From contig CALXOJ010000010.1 in assembly GCA_944390005.1 (NCBI GenBank), forward strand, positions 610-64,609: 64,000 nt of DNA, written 5' to 3'. A program made the translations under genes and the position numbers. Source of the stretch: an uncultured Spirochaetota bacterium. GTDB taxonomy: Bacteria > Spirochaetota > Spirochaetia > JAFGXN01. The notes under the pieces were generated by a model. That model had not been told where the DNA came from, searched no databases, and saw only the letters and a list, made by a program, of their open reading frames with translations. The stretch's first letter is position 1; each line of letters opens with the position of its first letter. This document shows, piece by piece, positions 3,148-64,000 of the stretch.

Positions 3148-4844
3148 AGCGGCCTCCGTTCGGTAAGAAAGCGGCCTTTGCGCCATTCGGTCGCAGTGTG
3201 GTACGGCGCCGCACCCGCGTAAAGCTGATCCTCGCGGTAAAACGCACCGACCGATTCGCTTCGTTCTTCTGCAGCGGAAAAAAGGGCGGCTGCAAGGAAA
3301 AGCAGATTTTCTGTCTCTAAAAAATCTTTCAATTCGGTATTGAATGGTTGTCCGAGTCCGTTTTTCAGGCGGCAGCGGGCGAAACGGCGGTTTAGGAGCG
3401 TCAGTTTTGCGATTCCCTGTTTATGACGGACGGTGGTATGCGCAGTGCTGCAGTATGCCGACATGATTTCTTTCAGTTCTCGGCGGCAGTCGAGCGGTGT
3501 TTCTACCGATCCGCGGCTGTTTTCATTGTCGCTTTGGAATAGGGTCAGCCGCTCGTTGAATGAGGCGGCAGCTTCGGTTGCTGCTTCCGGAGACGATGAA
3601 GGAGTTTTTAAATCGGCGCATTCGGCGGCTGCTGTTTGTCCCGCACGGGTTCCAAAGACAACGGCTTCCAAAAGAGAGTTTCCGCCGACACGGTTGGCGC
3701 CGTGAACCCCGGTACAGGCGCATTCTCCGGCAGCATAAAGCCCCGGTACAGGAAAGCCGATTCCGTCCAACGCCCGACCGTCGAGATCGCAGGCAACGCC
3801 TCCCATGAAGTAGTGCGCTGTCGGAATGACAGGAATCAAATGGGTTGTTGGGTGAATGTGAAGAACGGTTTCCGTTAAATCACACAATTCGGGAAGGCGG
3901 GCAAAAAGCCGTTCGGGAGGAATATTGCGGCAGTCGAGCAGAACAAAATCTCCCCGTTTGCCAAAACCGCGGCCGCATTTCAATTCGGTTACGATTGCCC
4001 GCGTCACAGCATCGCGCGGCGCCAAATCGGCTTTTTCATGATAGCGGCCCATAAACGCTTCCATGTTTTTGTTGCGCAAAATGGCGCCTTCACCGCGCGC
4101 CGCTTCCGAAATCAAAAATCCGGACGGATACAATCCGGTCGGATGAAACTGAATCAATTCCCAGTCCCGCAGAGGAACTCCCGCACGCAGGGCCATAGCG
4201 GCACCGTCTCCCGTCGAACCGATTCCGTTGGAAGTAATGTCGAAAAGGGCCCCGGCGCCCCCGGTCGCTAAAATCACCGCTCCCGCCGAAAAAAATTCAA
4301 TGGCACCGGTTTCAAAACGAATGCCGTAAACGCCGGTCATGCGGCTGCCGTGTTTGATCAAATCGATTAAAAAAACCGAATATTCAAATCGGACCCCCGC
4401 TTTTTTGGCCTGTTCAAAAGCAGTTTGCATCAACGCTGCGCCGGTGCGGTCGCCGACAAAGCGGGTGCGCGGTGTGCTCATTGCGCCGAACGGCCGCCCT
4501 TCCGGTTCGTTGCGAGTTTCGTTCCATTGAAACGGAGTCCCGTTCTTCAAAAAGCGGTTGATGACGCCGACCGCTTCCCGACACAGAATTTCGACAGCGT
4601 TTCGGCTGCAAAGACCGCAGCCGGCGGCGATAGTCTCTTCGATGTGCAGGGCGGCGTCTTCTTCTGTCAGTGCGGCATTGATTCCGCCGGCAGCCGCCGC
4701 CGAGTGGCTTCTGAGTGGATGATTTTTTGAAACAACAACGGTTTTTTTTCCGGCTTCGGCCGCCGCCGTTGCCGCCGACAATCCGGCCAGACCGCCGCCG
4801 ATAACCAAAACGTCGCAAACCGTCACGCGGGAATTTCGAAACAT
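3144..4844 (-). CDS. sdhA: succinate dehydrogenase/fumarate reductase flavoprotein subunit
   Basis: FAD fold VLVIGGGLAGLSAA; RSHSAAAAGGI carries the conserved His for covalent FAD; also HPTG, RGEGAIL and HYFMGG. No Tat signal is present. Confidence 0.92.
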   Translation of the reverse strand: MFRNSRVTVCDVLVIGGGLAGLSAATAAAEAGKKTVVVSKNHPLRSHSAAAAGGINAALTEEDAALHIEETIAAGCGLCSRNAVEILCREAVGVINRFLKNGTPFQWNETRNEPEGRPFGAMSTPRTRFVGDRTGAALMQTAFEQAKKAGVRFEYSVFLIDLIKHGSRMTGVYGIRFETGAIEFFSAGAVILATGGAGALFDITSNGIGSTGDGAAMALRAGVPLRDWELIQFHPTGLYPSGFLISEAARGEGAILRNKNMEAFMGRYHEKADLAPRDAVTRAIVTELKCGRGFGKRGDFVLLDCRNIPPERLFARLPELCDLTETVLHIHPTTHLIPVIPTAHYFMGGVACDLDGRALDGIGFPVPGLYAAGECACTGVHGANRVGGNSLLEAVVFGTRAGQTAAAECADLKTPSSSPEAATEAAASFNERLTLFQSDNENSRGSVETPLDCRRELKEIMSAYCSTAHTTVRHKQGIAKLTLLNRRFARCRLKNGLGQPFNTELKDFLETENLLFLAAALFSAAEERSESVGAFYREDQLYAGAAPYHTATEWRKGRFLTERRPL

Positions 4845-8615: not shown

Positions 8616-9437
8616 ATGAGATTTTCGAGTTTGCATTGTCATACAACGTTTTCGGACGGAAAGGCGTCTGCCGAGGAGATGGTGCGCGCGGCGGTTGCAA
8701 AGGGGTTTGACGCAATCGGTTTTTCCGATCACGGGCCGATTACAGTCGACTGCGCCTGCAATATGCGTGCCGAGGATTTTGCCGCATATCGAGACGAAGT
8801 GCGGCGGCTGCAAACGCTTTTTCGCGGGCAAATCGATGTGCTGTTTGGTTTGGAGTGCGATTGGCTGAAAGGAATTCAACCGATGAGTTTTTACGACGCA
8901 TTTGAGACCGATTACCGTATCGGCAGCGTTCATTTTCTTTGTTTCGACGGGGAAGCGGTGGCGGTCGATTTTTCCGCCGAATCGCAGGAACGAATGGTGA
9001 CGTCGCAGTTTAACGGCGACTGGGAGGCATTTGTCCTTGATTATTACCGCAATGTTGAAGCGATGACAGCTGCCGGCGGCTTTGAAATTCTCGGTCACCT
9101 TGATTTGGTGCGAAAGTTCAACGAAGGCGGCCGCCTGTACAGTGAAAAAGCGGCGGCTTTCAACACGGCGGTCGCCCGCATATTGGAGGCGGCGGCGGAC
9201 AACCGAATCGCGGTCGAGGTTAACACCGGCGCTGTCGGCCGCGGTTGGCGGAGTTCTCCGTATCCCGCGTTTTGGATTTTAAAAGAGTGCCGACGCCGTC
9301 ATTTGCCGGTTGTGCTGAATTCCGACGCCCATACGCCGGCCGGTCTTGATGCGTTTTATCCGCAGGCGCTTGATTTGCTGCGCGAAGCCGGTTACGATGG
9401 CGAACCGACGGGGCTGTTAAGGCTGTTTAAGAGGTAA
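8616..9437 (+). CDS. PHP-domain phosphoesterase, histidinol-phosphatase (HisJ) family
   Basis: N-terminus LHCHTTFSDG...FSDHGP and C-terminal NSDAH are typical PHP metal ligands. Confidence 0.8.
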   Translation: MRFSSLHCHTTFSDGKASAEEMVRAAVAKGFDAIGFSDHGPITVDCACNMRAEDFAAYRDEVRRLQTLFRGQIDVLFGLECDWLKGIQPMSFYDAFETDYRIGSVHFLCFDGEAVAVDFSAESQERMVTSQFNGDWEAFVLDYYRNVEAMTAAGGFEILGHLDLVRKFNEGGRLYSEKAAAFNTAVARILEAAADNRIAVEVNTGAVGRGWRSSPYPAFWILKECRRRHLPVVLNSDAHTPAGLDAFYPQALDLLREAGYDGEPTGLLRLFKR

Positions 9438-9691
9438 AAAACAATAATTTTTATCAAGATTAACAAAATTTTAAAAAAAAGATTGTATTTTATGTAAATC
9501 TTAATGTAAAATATAAAAGTAAGTTGTATTGATTCAATTTTAACGACTTTTCGGACGAGAATGAAAGAGAGGTGTTTTGATTGAGAGGAAATGATTGACG
9601 CGCTTTTGTTCCTGTTTGTGAGTCAATCGGTTTGTCGAAATTCGGTATTAAATGAATTCGATTTCGGCATTATTATTTAAGGAGTATAAAA

Positions 9692-33176: not shown

Positions 33177-33207
33177 GAGCGGCCGCTTTGTCCGAGTATC
33201 GGCGGAT

Positions 33208-33561
33208 TCATCGGCATCGGCTGACTTCAACCCAAACAGCCGCCGCTTCCGGCAGAATTCCGGGCTTGCAAAGGCGCACGGTTGCCGTTTCGGCTTGCGC
33301 AAACCGTTGAAGAATGCAGTCGCCAATCCGCCCCGCCAGCGTTTCCAGCAGCCTGCACCGAGATTCGGCGACGGTTCTTCGAACCATCTGCGGCAACAGG
33401 GCATAATCGACAGCCTCGGCTATATCGTCGTTCTTTTCGGCTTTTGACGAATCGTAACGGATCACGACTGTCGCAATAACCGGCGTAAGGTGCGTTCGTT
33501 CGTGCTCTTCAACACCGATAATGGTTTCCGACTCGATATTTTCAATTGTAATGACGCACAT
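33208..33561 (-). CDS. folB: dihydroneopterin aldolase
   Basis: 117 aa with IIGVEEHER...DDIAEAVDYALL...LLETLA...KPG pattern. Confidence 0.75.
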   Translation of the reverse strand: MCVITIENIESETIIGVEEHERTHLTPVIATVVIRYDSSKAEKNDDIAEAVDYALLPQMVRRTVAESRCRLLETLAGRIGDCILQRFAQAETATVRLCKPGILPEAAAVWVEVSRCR

Positions 33562-33622
33562 TTTTCTCTCCGATTTTTTTTAACAAAAAAAAGAAAAAAA
33601 ATAAACGATTTTCCCGAATTTA

Positions 33623-33631
33623 TGATATAAT
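33623..33631 (+). promoter_or_regulatory. extended -10 promoter; predicted leaderless mRNA
   Basis: TGaTATAAT (33623-31), 6 nt, ATG at 33638. No SD. Confidence 0.5.
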
Positions 33632-33637
33632 CGGAAC

Positions 33638-34027
33638 ATGATAATCGAGAAATTTTACCCTGCAATCGCCGATACGGACGGATTACGGCATATGAACAAC
33701 TTGTCCATTCAATATTGGCTTGAAAAAGCGCGCAACCCGATTTTTAAAATCTGCAATCCGTCGCTTCTCTTTGAAAACTGGAACCAAATCATGGTTCGAA
33801 GCGAAGTCGATTTTCTTTCACAGATTTTTTACGGAAAAGAGTGTGAAATGAAAACCGGAGTGTCGAAATTGGGTCGCAGTTCAATGCATATTTATCAGGA
33901 ACTGTATCAGGAAGGACGATTGTGCGCCCGCTCGACGGTGGTGACGGTGTTTTTTGATTACCGGGCGCAGAAATCGACGGAAATTCCTTCAGGAATCCGT
34001 TCGGAACTTGAAAAACTGCTTGTTTAA
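33638..34027 (+). CDS. hotdog-fold acyl-CoA thioesterase (4HBT/YbgC-like)
   Basis: 129 aa; the DTDGLRHMNN pattern near the N-terminus is typical of this family. Confidence 0.65.
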   Translation: MIIEKFYPAIADTDGLRHMNNLSIQYWLEKARNPIFKICNPSLLFENWNQIMVRSEVDFLSQIFYGKECEMKTGVSKLGRSSMHIYQELYQEGRLCARSTVVTVFFDYRAQKSTEIPSGIRSELEKLLV

Positions 34028-34089
34028 TCTTTCTGTTCCGAAGAAATTTGTGTTTCCATACGGATGATTTTAAGTTAGCGGGAAAAAAC

Positions 34090-50508: not shown

Positions 50509-50537
50509 GTTCCAAAGATAGAAAAAGGAGGCCGAGA

Positions 50538-50891
50538 GTGAAGGCTAAAAATTTGATGGTTTTTTTATTTGTTCTTTTGAGTCTGTTTGTGTCGGTCGGC
50601 GCGTTTGCACAAGATGCCGCGGATGAGGCGACTGCAGCGGAAACAGAGGTTACTGCGTCGGATGAGAGTTCTTCCATGAGAATGTTGGGAGCGCTTATCG
50701 GAGCCGCCGTAGCGTTCGGATTGGGAGCCATCGGTGCCGGTTTGGGTATCGGACAAGTCGGTTCCGCCGCTATGGGTGCGATTGCCGAGAAACCGAATTT
50801 GGCAGGTCAGGCGCTGATTTTTGTTGCGTTGGCTGAAGGTATCGTTGTTTTCGGTTTTATCATGGCGATCATGATTTTGGGCAAAATTTAA
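50538..50891 (+). CDS. atpK: V-type ATP synthase subunit K (proteolipid, single hairpin)
   Basis: GAIGAGLGIGQ and ALAEGIVVFG (ion-binding Glu). GTG 50538 has AAAGGAGG upstream. The N-terminus resembles a signal peptide. Confidence 0.8.
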   Translation: MKAKNLMVFLFVLLSLFVSVGAFAQDAADEATAAETEVTASDESSSMRMLGALIGAAVAFGLGAIGAGLGIGQVGSAAMGAIAEKPNLAGQALIFVALAEGIVVFGFIMAIMILGKI

Positions 50892-50894
50892 CGC

Positions 50895-51200
50895 ATGAAA
50901 TACTTTGTTATCGGTGATCAAGATACGGTCTTGGGTTTCAATTTAGCCGGAGTCGAAGGTAAAATCGTCTCCGGAAAAGAAGAAACTGAAACCGCATTCT
51001 CCGAAGCATTGAATGTTCCCGATGTAGCGATTGTTGTGATTACCGAAAAATGTGCGGCGTTGATTCGCGAAGAGCTGGAAAACTATCTTTTTACGAAGGA
51101 TTTCCCGCTGATTGTCGAAATTCCCGACAGAAGCGGACCGGATCCTCAACGGCCTTCACTAAAGCAAACGATTAACGCCGCCATCGGAATCAAATTATAG
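50895..51200 (+). CDS. atpF: V-type ATP synthase subunit F
   Basis: 101 aa, starting KYFVIGDQDTVLGFNLAGVEG. Confidence 0.8.
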   Translation: MKYFVIGDQDTVLGFNLAGVEGKIVSGKEETETAFSEALNVPDVAIVVITEKCAALIREELENYLFTKDFPLIVEIPDRSGPDPQRPSLKQTINAAIGIKL

Positions 51201-51210
51201 GCGGTAATTT

Positions 51211-56798: not shown

Positions 56799-57041
56799 TT
56801 ATTCGGCAACAACAGCAGCGTCTTCGACAACTGCTTCGTCAACAACTGCTGCGTCTTCAGTGACAACACTTTCCTCAGTTTCAACATCGGCAACAACAGG
56901 TTCATCGATAGTCGTCGGAGCGACAACAGTTTCATCCATTGTAACTGTTTCTTCCGCAGCATCTTTCGTTTTTTTGCATCCAACAATTACCATAGACGCA
57001 AAAATTAAAGCTGTAATAAATAAAAGACCGGTTTTTTTCAT
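56799..57041 (-). CDS. small acidic Val/Glu/Asp-rich lipoprotein
   Basis: Lipobox IVGC and SD GGAGG. It is framed by its own terminator. Confidence 0.6.
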   Translation of the reverse strand: MKKTGLLFITALIFASMVIVGCKKTKDAAEETVTMDETVVAPTTIDEPVVADVETEESVVTEDAAVVDEAVVEDAAVVAE

Positions 57042-57168: not shown

Positions 57169-58287
57169 TTAAAATTTAATCTGAAAACTCTTCGGCAGCA
57201 TAATTTCAGAAACGCAGTCGATGGCATAATCGTCGGTCATACCGGCAACGTAATCGAACGCCGCTTCGGATTCCGGCTTGTCTTCGTAATAAGCTGACAT
57301 TTTTTCGAGGTAATCGGCAAAATGAGCTGCCAACGAATTCGGTTCGTCGAAAAACCGCTGCGTATCGCGGCCGTACTTTTGAACCAAGTCGGTCAGATAG
57401 CCGTAAACGGCGGTCAGAATGCGTTTAAAGTTGTCGTGATACACCGTCATCTTCGGATTGCGGTAAATGTGCTCGTAATTAAACTTCACCAAATGACGCA
57501 TGGCTTCATAAACCGCATCGGAAAAGCCGATTTCACCCGTCTTCAGTGACGTTTCAATAAGATCGCGCACCATTGTGTTGATCATTTTGGCATTGTTGCT
57601 TCCCAAGACCCGTTCGGCCGCCGGCGGCAGGCTTTCGGCGGAAATTAAATGCAAATGACAAGCGTCTTCAAAATCTCGTCCGAGATAGGCGATTTTATCG
57701 GAGAACCGAACAACCACGCCCTCCCATGTAGCCGGCAAACGGCTGCGGTCAGTCAAATTTTCCAAACAACAGACAGAAAAGTCGGGCTTCAACGACTGTT
57801 CAAACCGTTCGCCGCAGTGATTAACGATTCCGTCGCGCACCGCGTAAGTCAGGTTCAGTCCTTTTCCGTAACCGGTCAACGAATCGACAGTCTTCAGCGA
57901 ATAAAGTTCATGTGAAAACGCCTGTCCCGAAAGTTCTGCAAGAATCTGTTCGCCGAGATGTCCGAACGGCGTGTGTCCCAAGTCGTGCCCCAATCCGATT
58001 GCCCATGCCAAATCGCTGTTTAAATCGAGCGCGCGGCAAATCGTTGAGGCAATAGAGGCAACGTGCATAACGTGTTCGATGCGGGTGCAAATGTGATCGT
58101 TCTTTGGCGCGTAAAAAACCTGTGTTTTGTGTTTCAGGCGGCGGAACGGATAAGAGTGAATGATGGCGGTGACATCGCGGAAATAGTTGCCGCGCGGATC
58201 CGAATGTTCTCCCGCCTTAACAAACCGCCGCGCTTTCAGAACCGCCGCATCCAAAGGATTTTGAAAAAAGAGATTGGACGAGCTCAC
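57169..58287 (-). CDS. dgt: dGTP triphosphohydrolase-like HD-domain protein
   Basis: FRRLKHKTQVF, TRIEHVMHV and GLGHDLGHTPFGH motifs. Confidence 0.85.
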   Translation of the reverse strand: MSSSNLFFQNPLDAAVLKARRFVKAGEHSDPRGNYFRDVTAIIHSYPFRRLKHKTQVFYAPKNDHICTRIEHVMHVASIASTICRALDLNSDLAWAIGLGHDLGHTPFGHLGEQILAELSGQAFSHELYSLKTVDSLTGYGKGLNLTYAVRDGIVNHCGERFEQSLKPDFSVCCLENLTDRSRLPATWEGVVVRFSDKIAYLGRDFEDACHLHLISAESLPPAAERVLGSNNAKMINTMVRDLIETSLKTGEIGFSDAVYEAMRHLVKFNYEHIYRNPKMTVYHDNFKRILTAVYGYLTDLVQKYGRDTQRFFDEPNSLAAHFADYLEKMSAYYEDKPESEAAFDYVAGMTDDYAIDCVSEIMLPKSFQIKF

Positions 58288-59678
58288 ATCGTCTCCCTAT
58301 TAATCAGAAACCGCGGATTTAAAAGTGCATCCAGCTCCTGCGGAAGAATATCAGTCAGCTTCAACGCCGCTTCCCGCACCGTAATCCGCTCTCGGTAAGC
58401 GGCATACGCAATCTGCGCCGCTTTGTCGTATCCAACCTTCAGCGCCAAAGGCGTTACCATCGCCAGCGACCATTCGATTTGCTTGCGGCACTGTTCGCGG
58501 TCGGCTTTGATTCCGGCCACACATTTTTTTGCCAAAGCGTCGGCTGCGTTGGTCAGAATCGACAGCGATTCAAGAATTTCATAAGCCATCAGCGGCATCA
58601 TCATATTGAGCTGCAGCGGACCCGTCTGCCCGCCGACGGAAATCGTCACATGTTTACCCATAACCGCGGCGCACACCTGAATAACGCATTCGGGAATCAC
58701 CGGGTTTACCTTCCCGGGCATAATGGAACTTCCCGGCTGAAGAGACGGCAATTCAATTTCAGCAAAACCGCAGCGCGGACCGGAAGAGAGCAGCCGCAAA
58801 TCATTGGCAATTTTCATCAAAGAAACAGCGATACCGTTGAGAACTCCCGACAGCGCAACAATTGAATCGCGGGCGCCGATAGCCTCAAAGTAATTAGATG
58901 CCGGTTTGAACGGCAGTTTTGTCCATTCGGAGAGTTTGGCAGCCGCCGCTTTCGGCATACGCGGATCGCAATTAAGCCCCGTTCCGACAGCCGTTCCGCC
59001 GAGCGCCAATTCGGTCACCCGCGGCAAAACCTCCTTAACGGCGTGCGCTCCGCAGGTCATTTGACGGGCAAAGGCGGAAAACTCCTGTCCCAGCGTCATC
59101 GGCACAGCATCCTGCAAATGAGTGCGGCCGATTTTTTCGACATCGGCAAACTCCTTTGCTTTGGCATCAAAAACCTCCGCAAGCGTTTGAAGCGCATCGA
59201 TGAGTTTCAGCGCCTCACAGGCAGCCGCAACGTTCATCGCCGACGGAATCACATCATTCGACGACTGTCCGCGGTTGACGGTGTCGTTCGGGTGTACCGG
59301 CGACTTGGCGCCTTTCTCCGTTCCAAGAATCTCGTTTGCACGGTTGGCAATCACCTCATTGACATTCATGTTCCAGCTGGTTCCGGACCCGGTTTGATAA
59401 ACATCCAACGGAAAATCCCCGTCAAAACGCCCCTCCGCCGCCTCATCGCAGGCAGCGGCAATCGCCCGCACCGCATCCGCCTCCAACAACCCCAGTTCGC
59501 CGTGAACCAAAGCCGCCGCTTTTTTAATCAGAACCAACGCCCGCAAAAACGGCCTCGGCATCCGTAAAGACGAAATGCGGAAGTTTTCCGCCGCCCGCGC
59601 CGTTTGCGCACCGTAATACCTATCGGAAGGAACGCTCACCGTCCCCATGGAATCTTTTTCTTCTCTAAAATTGCTCAT
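58284..59678 (-). CDS. aspA: aspartate ammonia-lyase (class II fumarase/aspartase family)
   Basis: The signature GSSIMPGKVNPVIPE (NPV.PE is aspartase-like rather than fumarase NPTQ). ATG 59678 is preferred; the listed ORF runs 43 codons further upstream. Confidence 0.8.
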   Translation of the reverse strand: MSNFREEKDSMGTVSVPSDRYYGAQTARAAENFRISSLRMPRPFLRALVLIKKAAALVHGELGLLEADAVRAIAAACDEAAEGRFDGDFPLDVYQTGSGTSWNMNVNEVIANRANEILGTEKGAKSPVHPNDTVNRGQSSNDVIPSAMNVAAACEALKLIDALQTLAEVFDAKAKEFADVEKIGRTHLQDAVPMTLGQEFSAFARQMTCGAHAVKEVLPRVTELALGGTAVGTGLNCDPRMPKAAAAKLSEWTKLPFKPASNYFEAIGARDSIVALSGVLNGIAVSLMKIANDLRLLSSGPRCGFAEIELPSLQPGSSIMPGKVNPVIPECVIQVCAAVMGKHVTISVGGQTGPLQLNMMMPLMAYEILESLSILTNAADALAKKCVAGIKADREQCRKQIEWSLAMVTPLALKVGYDKAAQIAYAAYRERITVREAALKLTDILPQELDALLNPRFLINRETM

Positions 59679-59684
59679 GCTCCC

Positions 59685-59690
59685 ATTATA
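59685..59690 (-). promoter_or_regulatory. -10 box of aspA; predicted leaderless mRNA
   Basis: On the minus strand: TATAAT (59690-59685), 6 nt, ATG at 59678. Confidence 0.45.
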
Positions 59691-60027
59691 AGCTTTTTCG
59701 AAAAAATATCCAGACGATTTTTGACGTTCAACGCAAACGGCATGATGGACACACGTTTCAGGTGCCTTCGGTTTTCTCTTTTTCGGGCGCGTGCCCCTGC
59801 GGGGCACCGGGCTTTCCGCTGCAATTCGCAGCCTCCCGCGCCTTTACCGAGGCAAAGCTGCCGCTTTGCCCTGCGCCATCTCTCCGTCGGCAGCTCATTT
59901 CCGCTCCAATCCCTCGCGCCTTCGAAAGCGTGCGCCCCTTTTTCGGATCCGCCGCTGTAATGACATCATCCCGTGTTATCCGAAAAACAAACAAAACGCA
60001 ATAAGAAAAAATAATTTTTTATTTAAT

Positions 60028-60057
60028 TTGACTGGGGGGGGGGGGGCGTGTTATCCT
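60028..60057 (+). promoter_or_regulatory. sigma70-type promoter whose spacer is a poly(G) tract
   Basis: TTGACT (60028-33), 18 nt spacer (G13 plus cgtgt), TGtTATCCT (hexamer at 60052-57). SD GAGGAG lies at 60064-69 and the ATG at 60077. Confidence 0.6.
60034..60046 (+). repeat. homopolymeric G13 tract
   Basis: Thirteen consecutive G counted directly. It is the longest G/C run I saw in the window. Confidence 0.95.
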
Positions 60058-60076
60058 AACATTGAGGAGATTTCTT

Positions 60077-63000
60077 ATGAAAAAAATAATCCCACTGTTA
60101 TCTGTTTTTATGTTATTATTCATGGCTTGCCCTCCGAAAGACGGAGAAGAAGTCGCAATTACTCTATCGCCGACGACCTTGGAGCTGAAAGTCGGTGAAA
60201 CCGGTGCTTTAACCGCGTCCGTCACACCGGCGCAAGCAAAAATTGCGGGTGTGAAGTGGAGTTCTTCCAACACGGCGGTTGCCTCCGTATCCTCGGGAAC
60301 GGTGACCGGCGTCGGAGAAGGAACGGCAACCATCACCGCCGAATCGGTGCAGGACCCATCAAAAAAAGCGAGCGCTTCGGTCACTGTCACCAATCCGTAC
60401 AAAGACGGTTTTACGATTTCGGGCGAAAACGTTATCGTTTTGCTTGCAACTCAAAAAAAGGTTAACTTCCAACTCTTTAGCGATTCTGAAAAATTTTTGA
60501 ATGAAGTAAAAGCGTGCTTTCCGGCAGCCGAATCGGCGGGTTTCACCTACAGCAATATTATTGTTAAAAAAATTGACGCCGCTGAAAACAGCTTGGTTTT
60601 GCTGACTGATCCGCCGCTGTTTAAGCTCGATTCGCCGCTTTCGGCAGACAGTTTTGCGGGTGAAAAGACCGCTAATGTGCAGCCCGGAACGGAATACACA
60701 AAGAAATTCGCCCTTGATCTGGAAGTCGGCGGACGGACGGTGAAAGTGACATGGGGTGACGGCGAAGGCGACGTGTTTACCACACCGAGTGAGGGTGAAA
60801 TCACCTTCTCGGCGAGTGATGTCTCGTATTCGGTTTCTGCTGACGGGATTCTTTCCGGCAGTGTCAATAACTTATTGACGAAGTTTACCGACGCCGGTAT
60901 CGAGAATGTCGAAAGTAAACAGGTTAAGATTACCGTTACCGCCAACGATCAAACCAAAGACGTGACGAGCAACGTCTCCAACTCAATTGAATGGAGTTTT
61001 GATAAAGCATTTGACGAAGGAACGGACGTTGAGCTGAACGTGAAACTGACATTTGACGGATGGGATCCAATGCCGAATGTGACATATGAAGGTCTGCCGA
61101 TTGTGTTTACGACTGCAAAATCCGTGACGGTTACGCCGGCAGAAATTAACCTGCTGCGTAAAACAGACGATCGCGGCAACCCTGAGGCAACGTTGATTGC
61201 GCAGTTCAGCTATCCTGACATGGAGGTTTTGCTTGACGGAGCCGATTATTTGAACGGCGCGTATGCCGATTACGACTTTGAAAACGCGACGTGGAGCGCT
61301 GAGTTTGCCGATGCGGACAATGCCGGAACACCAGTCGCGACTATTACGGACGCGCCTTACGGTGAACCGACGGAGACCAATTTAGCTTTGGACAAAGATT
61401 ATAATCTGAAGCTGATTAAGGGAACGTTGACCGTTCCCGCACGTGTTGGCGGAACGTCCGTTTCGTTTTCTCTGGTTTGGGGAAGCGATAAACTTTTCGG
61501 TGATTCGGTTTTGGTGAAGGGAGACCGCGAGTTTCCCGAATACATCTGGTTGGATCAGAACGGCAATTATAAAGAAGAAGATCCGAATGACGGCAGCTAC
61601 ACGAAGTACCGACTGTCGTGGGGAGATGACTTCAACTATCCGTTCAACGGGTTGAACTATAAGAATAATGGAGCCTATTTGGCGGCGCGGGAAAATCCCG
61701 ACGACCCTGCCCATGATTTTGCCCGCCTGTGGGGCTGTGAAAAGTTGGAGCAGGGATCGCACGGAAGAAAATCAGGAACATGGGACTTCCGCACCATCGA
61801 AGCGAAAAACGGAATGCTGATGTCGAAGCATATGGCGGCTGACGCTGACAATGACATTTTTTATTTGGGGTTAAATAAAACCAAACCGCTCGGCGGATTT
61901 ACTGATATTAATCAGGACGGACAATCTGGACATACTTTTGTTCCGAATTTTATTTCGGGGGCTGCGGTCACCAACGAACTGTACGGAAAAGGATATTACG
62001 TGGCAAAGCTGCGCACCCGCTATAAAGGTTATTCCGACACAAAGCATTTTACAGGCGGGGAGGCAGGCGGTACCGGCGCTTGGTTTGCGTTTTGGATGCA
62101 CGGACCGGTTCATGAGTTTGACTTAATGGAACAGACGGCAGGAAGCCCGCGGGTTATCAACTACGTCAACCAGTATCACAATAGCTGGGGAACTTACGGA
62201 ACGACGTATATGTCTTATTTTTACCAGCAGTTGAATGTCAACGGCGCTGATACGGTCATGCAGGACAACTGGTACAAGCTGGCGCTGCAATGGACCGATG
62301 ATCAGGTGACCTATTATTACAACGACGTCTGGGCGCATTATTATAAAGCTACCGATAGTAACAACAAACAGGCGTCACTGACAAAGAACAATAATTTACA
62401 AAGTCAAGCCGGTGCAGTATCAAATAACGGTAATACTGATAAGCAAAGCGTTAACACTTCAGGTTTCAACACGTCGTATAGAGACCATGGTTATACCGAT
62501 ACCCTGTTAGCCGTTCCGCAGGCGCCGATGAACGTCTTTTTGTCGACAGAAATCGGCAGCGGATGGGGCTCTGTTCCGACGCAGAAGAATGCATTGAATC
62601 ATCTTCCTGTATGGGTCGAAGCTGATTACATCGCTTATTACGTGCCGGACGTTCCTGTGCAGTCAGTCGAGATTCCGGAAGATTTGAAACTTCAATATGA
62701 GACAGTATATCTGACCACACCCGATTTTCAGCTGACAGCGGAAGTTTTGCCGTCCAATGCGACATCGACGGAAGTAAGCTGGAGCAGTTCCGATGACGAG
62801 GTTCTTACGGTTTCCGCGGACGGAATTGTCCATATTCTCAAAGCGGGAGAAGCAACCGTGACGGTCGCCTCCGTGTTGGATTCGTCAAAATCCGATTCTT
62901 TTCTCATTACCGTTAATTCCGATTCAACGCCCGTAGAAAGCGTTGAGATTAACACTGTCGACGAAACAGTTGCAATTGATTACATGGGCACCACAACGCT

Positions 63001-64000
63001 GACTGTCACCATCTTACCCGATAACGCGTCGGTAAAAAATGTAGAGTGGACAGTGGCTCCCGAAGGCATTGTGGAACTGGAAAACGCCGATACGGAGACA
63101 GTCACCGTCAATGCGGTCGGCAGCGGTACGGCAACGATCACCGTGACTTCGGTTGACAATCCCGAAGCCGTCGATTCGGTAAGCGTAACCATCGCTCCGC
63201 CGACGGCTCCGGGCACGTTTGAAGCGCACGGAACAACGTTTACCAAAGTTGATTCCTTGGAGTTCAGCGGCGACAACGGAGCGCTGCCCGATTACGCCGT
63301 TGTTGAAGAAGTGGACGGAGGGGAAGGCCGCATTACCTTCTCCGGCGGTCAAATGGTTGTGAATGCGGGAACCAAAACCAAATTGGTTTACACTCCGCAA
63401 GCCGATAAAGAGTTTGATTTTGTGCTGATTCACGCCTCTTATTCGGACGGAACGCCGAACGCGTACATCAACAACTTTAACAGCAATAATGTGGAATTGT
63501 CTCATTTGCAGTACATTAGAGACAGCAATAAATTACAGGTTTTTTCAGCAGATTGGCGCCGTTCTACGGATACGAATTTCACCTTCAGCGGCGATCCGGC
63601 GCTTTACGGAATTTACGCAGACAGCGGTACGTATGCTTTCGCGATTCAAAAGAATTGCTACGAGTCGCAAGAACTTTTTGAAAAGCTCGGAAGTTATGAC
63701 GCTGTTGATTTCGGTTCCGATAAAGTGGAATTTGTTTTTGAAGGCAGCGGAACGGTGAGAATTGACTACATCGGCTTTTACAAGGCGCAGAACTCTTTGG
63801 TTGATACTTCTCGCACCGCAGGACAATTGCCTGCCCAAGCCATTACCCGTGGCGGCAAAGATTACACGCTGGTGAGTACTTTGTTTGGGGAGGGAAATAA
63901 TGGTATCTCTTTGACGGATTACTTAGGAGCGGAGTATATAGAAGCGGGTTCGCTGTTGAAAATTACGCAGCAAGATACGAGTACGGAAGAGACTATGGAC
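60077..64000 (+). CDS. large surface lipoprotein with three Big_2 domains and a GH16-like catalytic domain; 5' part only, continues beyond the window
   Basis: Hand translation found no stop in 1308 codons. Lipobox LFMAC is present. Big_2 domains lie at about 60155-60360, 62660-62915 and 62930-63195. GH16 motifs are YGKGYYVAKLR, GAWFAFWM and HEFDLME (62111-62131). The ORF is absent from the supplied track because it has no in-window stop. Confidence 0.85.
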   Translation, partial: MKKIIPLLSVFMLLFMACPPKDGEEVAITLSPTTLELKVGETGALTASVTPAQAKIAGVKWSSSNTAVASVSSGTVTGVGEGTATITAESVQDPSKKASASVTVTNPYKDGFTISGENVIVLLATQKKVNFQLFSDSEKFLNEVKACFPAAESAGFTYSNIIVKKIDAAENSLVLLTDPPLFKLDSPLSADSFAGEKTANVQPGTEYTKKFALDLEVGGRTVKVTWGDGEGDVFTTPSEGEITFSASDVSYSVSADGILSGSVNNLLTKFTDAGIENVESKQVKITVTANDQTKDVTSNVSNSIEWSFDKAFDEGTDVELNVKLTFDGWDPMPNVTYEGLPIVFTTAKSVTVTPAEINLLRKTDDRGNPEATLIAQFSYPDMEVLLDGADYLNGAYADYDFENATWSAEFADADNAGTPVATITDAPYGEPTETNLALDKDYNLKLIKGTLTVPARVGGTSVSFSLVWGSDKLFGDSVLVKGDREFPEYIWLDQNGNYKEEDPNDGSYTKYRLSWGDDFNYPFNGLNYKNNGAYLAARENPDDPAHDFARLWGCEKLEQGSHGRKSGTWDFRTIEAKNGMLMSKHMAADADNDIFYLGLNKTKPLGGFTDINQDGQSGHTFVPNFISGAAVTNELYGKGYYVAKLRTRYKGYSDTKHFTGGEAGGTGAWFAFWMHGPVHEFDLMEQTAGSPRVINYVNQYHNSWGTYGTTYMSYFYQQLNVNGADTVMQDNWYKLALQWTDDQVTYYYNDVWAHYYKATDSNNKQASLTKNNNLQSQAGAVSNNGNTDKQSVNTSGFNTSYRDHGYTDTLLAVPQAPMNVFLSTEIGSGWGSVPTQKNALNHLPVWVEADYIAYYVPDVPVQSVEIPEDLKLQYETVYLTTPDFQLTAEVLPSNATSTEVSWSSSDDEVLTVSADGIVHILKAGEATVTVASVLDSSKSDSFLITVNSDSTPVESVEINTVDETVAIDYMGTTTLTVTILPDNASVKNVEWTVAPEGIVELENADTETVTVNAVGSGTATITVTSVDNPEAVDSVSVTIAPPTAPGTFEAHGTTFTKVDSLEFSGDNGALPDYAVVEEVDGGEGRITFSGGQMVVNAGTKTKLVYTPQADKEFDFVLIHASYSDGTPNAYINNFNSNNVELSHLQYIRDSNKLQVFSADWRRSTDTNFTFSGDPALYGIYADSGTYAFAIQKNCYESQELFEKLGSYDAVDFGSDKVEFVFEGSGTVRIDYIGFYKAQNSLVDTSRTAGQLPAQAITRGGKDYTLVSTLFGEGNNGISLTDYLGAEYIEAGSLLKITQQDTSTEETMD

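Follow-up and report, generated by a model that had tools for sequence, protein, structure and literature searches.

A length-variable poly-G tract in the predicted promoter spacer of a lipoprotein gene: a candidate contingency locus in an uncultured spirochaete

The stretch of DNA analysed here (64 kb, hereafter the window) carries a run of 13 G residues a short distance upstream of a gene for a large lipoprotein, which raises the question of whether slippage in this run could set the level at which the gene is transcribed. Promoters controlled by slippage are well known from host-adapted pathogens, including Neisseria, Haemophilus, Mycoplasma and Treponema pallidum, and in the literature that we searched, their description in spirochaetes was confined to T. 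pallidum. The host of the present locus looks, from its sequence, like a Sphaerochaetaceae-like spirochaete that is related to Sphaerochaeta rather than to Treponema, the LeuS protein of the window being at best about 70% identical to proteins of Sphaerochaeta and Pleomorphochaeta. Any parallel to T. pallidum would then be convergent.

The promoter region and its sequence context

Direct reading confirmed, base for base, a -35 hexamer TTGACT (60028..60033, + strand) followed by the G13 homopolymer (60034..60046, +). The tract leads into CGTGT (60047-60051) and the -10 hexamer TATCCT (60052-60057), which the TG at 60049-60050 extends to TGtTATCCT (60049..60057, +), giving a -35/-10 spacer of 18 nt in the window copy. 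A Shine-Dalgarno sequence, GAGGAG (60064..60069, +), lies 7 nt 5' of the ATG at 60077. These motif positions and the 18-nt spacer are exactly those given in a preliminary description of the locus, and a consensus promoter scan independently picked the same TTGACT/TATCCT pair, with 9 of 12 matches, the TG present and a spacer of 18. Other genes in the window have canonical promoters composed of TTGACA, a spacer of 16-17 nt and TAnnnT, indicating that the sigma-70-like consensus applies to the host organism. The TTGACT/TATCCT pair is probably the promoter that the gene actually uses. Two other -10 candidates were judged worse, namely TGTTAT, which has no A at position 2, and TAACAT, for which the spacer would be 23 nt. 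Directly 5' of the -35 box is an AT-rich stretch (60000..60027, +) that possibly has an UP-element-like role; it reads the same in 21 of the 22 promoter copies compared below, and copy L003 has a single substitution in it, at the position of 60006. Given the usual distance from -10 to start, transcription is predicted to begin at about 60063-60065, coinciding with the first base of the Shine-Dalgarno sequence, and the leader implied by this start is unusually short, at about 13 nt.

The tract itself stands out from its surroundings. It was the sole G or C homopolymer of at least 6 nt in the 64 kb, and the runner-up measured 5 nt, in agreement with the earlier remark that no other G/C run exceeded about 5-6 nt. 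A first-order Markov model of the window predicted about 13 G/C runs of at least 6 nt and 0.0004 of at least 13 nt; since only one of the 13 or so expected was seen, G/C runs appear to be depleted generally, and G13 is a strong outlier. Translation revealed an in-frame TGA at 60029-60031, which, together with the strong ribosome-binding site and the ATG, places the tract upstream of and outside the coding region. The repeat is thus not inside a reading frame, as it is in the intragenic frameshift class, and a translational frameshift switch was rejected because 30 nt separate the end of the tract from the ATG and this stop codon precedes the tract.

Tract length and promoter conservation across copies

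Promoter copies were gathered by exact-protein look-ups with P0001, the full-length product of the gene, and 13 allelic or orthologous proteins. The 22 readable copies, counting the window's own, came from at least three assembly sets, and the pipelines behind them comprised SPAdes-style NODE contigs, ONAT22-1 METAG scaffolds, Logan and another scaffold set. An uninterrupted run of 10-14 G's was kept in all 22, and interrupted forms of the tract (GA-Gn, GAGA-G10 and G11CG, with the interruption on the 5' or 3' side) also occurred among them. Spacer lengths were 16 nt in one copy, 17 in four, 18 in ten, 19 in six and 21 in one, the commonest being 18 nt and not the canonical 17. Tract length, whose invariance between strains would have told against the preliminary description, was therefore not invariant, ranging from G10 to G14 (spacers of 16-21 nt) within constant flanks, as in the promoter-spacer homopolymer class.

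About 110 nt upstream of the ATG were almost invariant among the 22 copies. The -35 box was TTGACT or TTGACA (TTGACA in 14 of 22), and position 6 alone varied, except in L003, where TTTCCT replaces the box and G13 is retained; this site is near a contig end, and the change may be erroneous or may mark a promoter that has genuinely lost strength. The -10 hexamer occurred as TATCCT, TATCTT or TATTCT, with T1, A2, T3 and T6 invariant and positions 4-5 variable. It was preceded in every copy by the G-T of 60050-60051, and the TG was kept in 21 of 22, L005 reading CGGGT (T to G at 60049). Apart from the -35 box of L003 and the TG of L005, promoter substitutions hit only the positions that consensus matching marks as least constrained. 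The proposed -35, TG and -10 elements are thus kept at the positions that matter, and the tract lies between two sigma-70-type hexamers, identified by consensus matching, whose critical positions are retained in 21 of the 22 copies. An orthologue with 42% identity in another genomic context (L095) has a plain promoter, TTGATT, 16 nt and TATAAT, without a G tract, suggesting that the tract was added, in one lineage, to a promoter of ordinary type.

Contigs that encode identical proteins provide the closest comparisons, and in these the tract was the sole indel. Four contigs of the P0015 group had no mismatches over about 4.5 kb and carried tracts of GA+G11, G14, G12 and G11, the tract being their sole difference of any kind. 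The P0009 pair differed by one mismatch, with G12 and G11, and the P0011 pair by 36 mismatches and no other indel, again with G12 and G11. Five P0001-type copies from several samples were all G13, indicating that any switching is too slow to randomize the predominant length. Because long homopolymers can be miscounted in short-read assemblies, and some contigs are possibly re-assemblies of the same reads, single-G differences are weak evidence; more robust are the difference of three G's, the alleles with interrupted tracts and the G13 that recurs in all five P0001-type copies. Three contigs (L006, L008 and L009) begin inside the tract, and the 181-bp repeats that flank the gene offer another explanation for assembly breaks near it.

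One further contig, L007, encodes a protein identical to P0001 and has 45 nt of unrelated sequence (1-45) in place of the poly-G promoter. This segment holds a terminator-like hairpin, GGCATAT-GA-TATGCC, followed by T5, and it had no match in the window or at any other locus. L007 represents either a variant without a promoter or a chimeric join produced by assembly at the end of the contig.

With the P0015, P0009 and P0011 comparisons and the polymorphism of the 22 copies, the switch hypothesis survives the comparison of tract lengths. The reading that we favour, with a probability of roughly 0.6, is that slippage in the G tract alters the spacing of an extended -10 sigma-70 promoter and, through it, the level of lipoprotein transcription. 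The tract would be a hypermutable simple-sequence repeat that makes up most of the spacer of a sigma-70-type extended -10 promoter, and this promoter would drive the large lipoprotein gene with its Big_2 and GH16-like domains. Slipped-strand mispairing at replication would add or remove G's, each change would shift the -35/-10 distance and the rotational phasing by one bp, and sub-populations would come to make different amounts of the protein, as graded volume control or as an on/off switch. The range of 16-21 nt spans spacings known to alter sigma-70 promoter strength strongly, and transcription would be expected to depend on the number of G's. Such switching may be advantageous, for example under phage, host antibody or a changing glycan supply. 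The candidate phase-variation switch put forward in the preliminary description is in this respect supported, at the level of sequence, by the tract polymorphism and the conserved promoter elements.

An alternative is that the tract is a genuine hot spot of mutation, or that its variation is technical, and that its length has no meaningful effect on expression, the run serving as a tolerated spacer filler. Extended -10 elements with a TG make promoters tolerant of poor -35 boxes or spacing; moreover, the uniform G13 of the P0001-type copies would fit a neutral run, homopolymer miscounts in short reads could explain one-G changes, and the flanking repeats also account for the contig breaks. However, at least 10 G's persist in all 22 alleles, even though the gene bodies have diverged to 64-82% protein identity and G/C runs are otherwise absent, which argues that selection keeps a long mutable tract in place. 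Differences of up to 3 G's also occur in otherwise 100% identical DNA, and the spacers of 16-21 nt cover spacings that change sigma-70 promoter strength, as in the tp0126 and porA experiments (PMC7864442). We consider a neutral filler unlikely on this evidence.

Rather less likely is that the tract controls transcription by some means other than spacer length, whether as a regulator site, through DNA rigidity, through open-complex formation or, at longer lengths, as a G-quadruplex. T. pallidum tprE/G/J/L and N. meningitidis opc would be precedents for such control; the poly-G of tprL overlaps the -10 region and a spacing mechanism was excluded by the authors, and a CRP homologue works jointly with the poly-G tracts of the tpr genes (PMC7864442). 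The commonest spacers here, 18-19 nt and not 17, and the absence of a good -35 box in L003 would also be compatible with it. The flanking hexamers, on the other hand, are conserved and match the consensus at all critical positions, no alternative -10 with an A at position 2 appears to be placed so that the tract would fall at or beyond it, and G13 is too short for a three-tetrad quadruplex.

It is improbable that transcription starts upstream of or within the tract, with the G run acting in reiterative transcription or as a 5'-UTR element. TTTAAT (60022-60027) or TATTTA precedes the first G by 6-8 nt, and initiation there would imply a leader of more usual length than that of the favoured model, which is 13 nt. 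Neither of these AT-rich hexamers is paired with a -35 box, however, the conserved A at position 2 is missing from TTTAAT, the promoter scan reported neither, and this reading would not account for the conservation of TTGAC and TG-TAT..T. That the poly-G is a sequencing or assembly artefact, such as the poly-G read tails of two-colour Illumina chemistry, is scarcely credible. The 16 G's with which contig L006 begins could be such an artefact, but unique sequence borders an internal tract on either side in 22 contigs that several pipelines produced, and the artefact reading was rejected for this reason.

The lipoprotein gene, its alleles and its flanking repeats

The lipoprotein gene begins at 60077, and its first 1308 codons (60077..64000, +) lie in the window, the remainder continuing past the window end. 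Its full-length protein P0001 has 1442 aa and is 100% identical to the window protein. The N-terminus, MKKIIPLLSVFMLLFMAC, is a signal peptide with Cys18 (60128-60130) in a lipobox-like FMAC context, which we take to be compatible with the permissive spirochaetal lipobox. The gene had been described as encoding a large surface lipoprotein, and the size and the Cys18 bear out the large lipoprotein; its exposure on the surface is presumed. Pfam identified Big_2 (E=2.4e-25) in three stretches together with a weak PKD-like match, and an NCBIfam search of the protein returned no family. These results rule out membership of the Tpr/MOSP family.

The centre of the protein holds a GH16-like beta-jelly-roll core (61949..62653, +), recognized by an invariant motif and by weak profile and structure matches. 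The motif, EFDLME, is of the catalytic ExDxxE type expected on the GH16 fold and lies at 62114-62131 (aa 680-685), in the context W.AFW.HGP.HEFDLME. Its E, D and E and the flanking W.AFW.HGP did not vary among 30 alleles whose identity to the window protein, over the 491-residue slice that holds the core, is only about 42%. A PDB profile search gave weak matches to GH16 laminarinases (E about 0.8), and Foldseek returned many GH16 enzymes, at E values of 1e-6 to 1e-4 and target TM-scores of 0.35-0.48, for an AlphaFold model that was itself poor (mean pLDDT 57). The lipoprotein had no match to Pfam GH16, even at E <=10, and with a poor model the GH16 assignment comes mainly from the invariant motif and the weak but consistent matches. 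We therefore regard the protein, with moderate confidence, as a GH16-like and probably surface-anchored glycanase.

Diversity among conspecific alleles was very unevenly distributed. It was 0.01-0.04 (about 0.02) from the neighbouring lyase gene through the intergenic region and promoter to the end of the lipoprotein gene's first 280 nt (window 58676-60359), and the first 110 residues of the protein were nearly invariant. From about 60360 it climbed to 0.15-0.45 over most of the gene body (60360-62995), with its peak over the GH16-like region, and it dropped to 0.05-0.09 over most of the 3' part of the gene. The ExDxxE motif within this hypervariable body was invariant throughout, and the allele bodies have diverged to a protein identity of 64-82%. 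A gene body that is hypervariable within a species is typical of contingency or surface loci. Silent donor cassettes of the tprK kind were sought with tblastn in the 60 kb upstream and 3 kb downstream, and none was found, indicating that the diversity lies between strains. The allele P0030 (L106 222-4061), whose promoter has TTGACA and keeps G14, differs in its C-terminal part, where Beta_helix_4 is found; the downstream context of L106 also differs, and a second run, of G9, occurs about 340 nt past the P0030 stop codon (about 4396-4404).

Gene and promoter are flanked in every full locus by a GC-rich direct repeat of about 181 bp, as established by blastn of the window against L001, L003, L090-L093 and L096. 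The upstream copy is at 59775..59955, and the second copy is about 30 nt past the stop codon, beyond the window end (for example L001 7360-7547 and L090 7327-7507). Identity between copies was 87-97%, and no further copies were found within the 64 kb. The downstream repeat lies just past a clean intrinsic terminator, GGGCGCCC-GCAA-GGGCGCC-T7, of which the upstream repeat retains only a degenerate version. A hairpin within the repeat (GTGC...GCAC) differs in sequence between copies with its pairing kept, and some repeat alleles hold internal duplications of 32 bp or 12 bp. Folding of the GC-rich repeat was no better than that of shuffled sequences on either strand (z = -1.4 and -0.7), and Rfam recognized no RNA family in the window at its gathering threshold.

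Divergently oriented upstream is a gene of the aspartate ammonia-lyase / class II fumarase family (58284..59660, -; Pfam Lyase_1, NCBIfam), for which the promoter scan reported a promoter-like site of its own at 59712-59685. Directly after the downstream repeat, outside the window, is a gene for an Rpn-family PD-(D/E)XK nuclease (TIGR01784, PDDEXK_2; L001 7729-8547), a recombination-promoting nuclease or putative transposase, and a gene that combines Fe-hydrogenase and MCP-signal domains also lies beyond the window end. A related genome, L010 (BRZ_BB bin28), was found with the neighbouring lyase as query in species-representative genomes and is 91% identical in DNA sequence across the lyase and HD genes. 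Its corresponding region (L010 1-6000) is without the whole cassette of repeat, promoter and gene and has an esterase-like gene instead, which makes a tract comparison impossible in that genome. Homology to L010 stops at 59712, the left edge of the inserted cassette, indicating that the cassette is a lineage-specific insertion. Queries of species-representative genomes with the lipoprotein itself yielded no relative, and scans of JGI metagenomes produced no match for the variable-gap DNA pattern or for the N-terminal protein sequence.

Elsewhere in the window, the 80-aa product of a small ORF (56799-57041, -) carries a signal of lipoprotein type (…VIVGC), and its acidic tail is encoded by imperfect tandem repeats of 15 nt (TRF 56807-56859). 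Gaps of 590-870 nt at 33177-34047, 50509-51210 and 9099-9691 contain no ORF of at least 150 aa and no Rfam family at the gathering threshold.

Relation to known systems and significance

The closest described counterpart of the locus is tp0126 of T. pallidum, an OmpW homologue in which a poly-G lies between -35 and -10 and expression is optimal at a 17-nt spacer (PMC7864442). Both cases involve a spirochaete, a poly-G between sigma-70 boxes and an envelope protein gene downstream. The present host, judging by LeuS, is of another family, and its gene is an unrelated lipoprotein gene of Big_2/GH16-like type; in addition, the tract here is longer (10-14 G), and the commonest spacer is 18 nt. Similar designs are known in Neisseria. 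In N. meningitidis porA, a promoter poly-G sets the level of transcription by slippage (PMC7864442). The poly-G of porA and the poly-C of opc resemble the present tract in being homopolymers in or next to a promoter spacer, and both are classic cases of volume control of surface proteins. They belong, however, to another phylum and to other genes, opc acts at the -35 box and not via spacing, and the present locus also has 181-bp flanking repeats and a hypervariable enzyme domain.

The preliminary description had drawn its parallel to the tpr genes of T. pallidum, and this comparison holds in part. In tprE/G/J and tprL, as here, a variable poly-G lies upstream of the gene start in a spirochaete, and those tracts have been examined by fragment-length analysis and GFP reporters (PMC7864442). 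The likeness does not extend to the gene, which is not a Tpr, to the host, which does not appear Treponema-like, or to tract placement. The tracts of the tpr genes adjoin the start site on its upstream side and extend into the -10 region, and spacing was excluded by the authors (PMC7864442), whereas the tract here, by consensus prediction, lies cleanly between the boxes and ends 5 nt before the -10 hexamer, and it neither abuts the predicted start nor overlaps the -10. A system outside the spirochaetes and Neisseria offers a further comparison in its mechanism and in its product. In Mycoplasma hyorhinis, a poly-A in the -35/-10 spacer of the vlp genes switches variable surface lipoproteins. 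The vlp tract is of A and not G, however, and the vlp genes are a multigene family with size variation from internal repeats, whereas in the present case one locus carries different alleles in different strains.

Control of spacing by slippage in the G tract, the reading favoured above, is a mechanism of the known porA/tp0126 class and would not surprise a specialist. The locus is a well-supported candidate contingency locus of this type, and its poly-G probably acts as a "dimmer switch" driven by slippage, of a sort already familiar. What the setting adds is a host that resembles Sphaerochaeta, a GH16-like glycanase whose catalytic domain is hypervariable, and repeats beside an Rpn nuclease, and the design is now seen in an uncultured Sphaerochaeta-related lineage known from metagenomes only. 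Confirmation would extend stochastic expression, whether on/off or graded, to surface enzymes that act on carbohydrates in commensal or environmental bacteria. In that case the locus could also be tracked directly in metagenomic reads, and tract length could then serve as a population-level marker of expression state.

A broader reading, which we offer tentatively, is that the 181-bp repeat, the poly-G promoter and the invariant signal peptide with the first Big_2 form a conserved module into which different GH16-like and C-terminal bodies are exchanged between strains, possibly with the help of the flanking repeats and the adjacent Rpn-family nuclease. If this reading is true, a non-pathogenic, sugar-fermenting spirochaete would join slippage phase variation with cassette-like enzyme replacement, and the locus would be a contingency locus for glycan degradation and not a classical virulence antigen.
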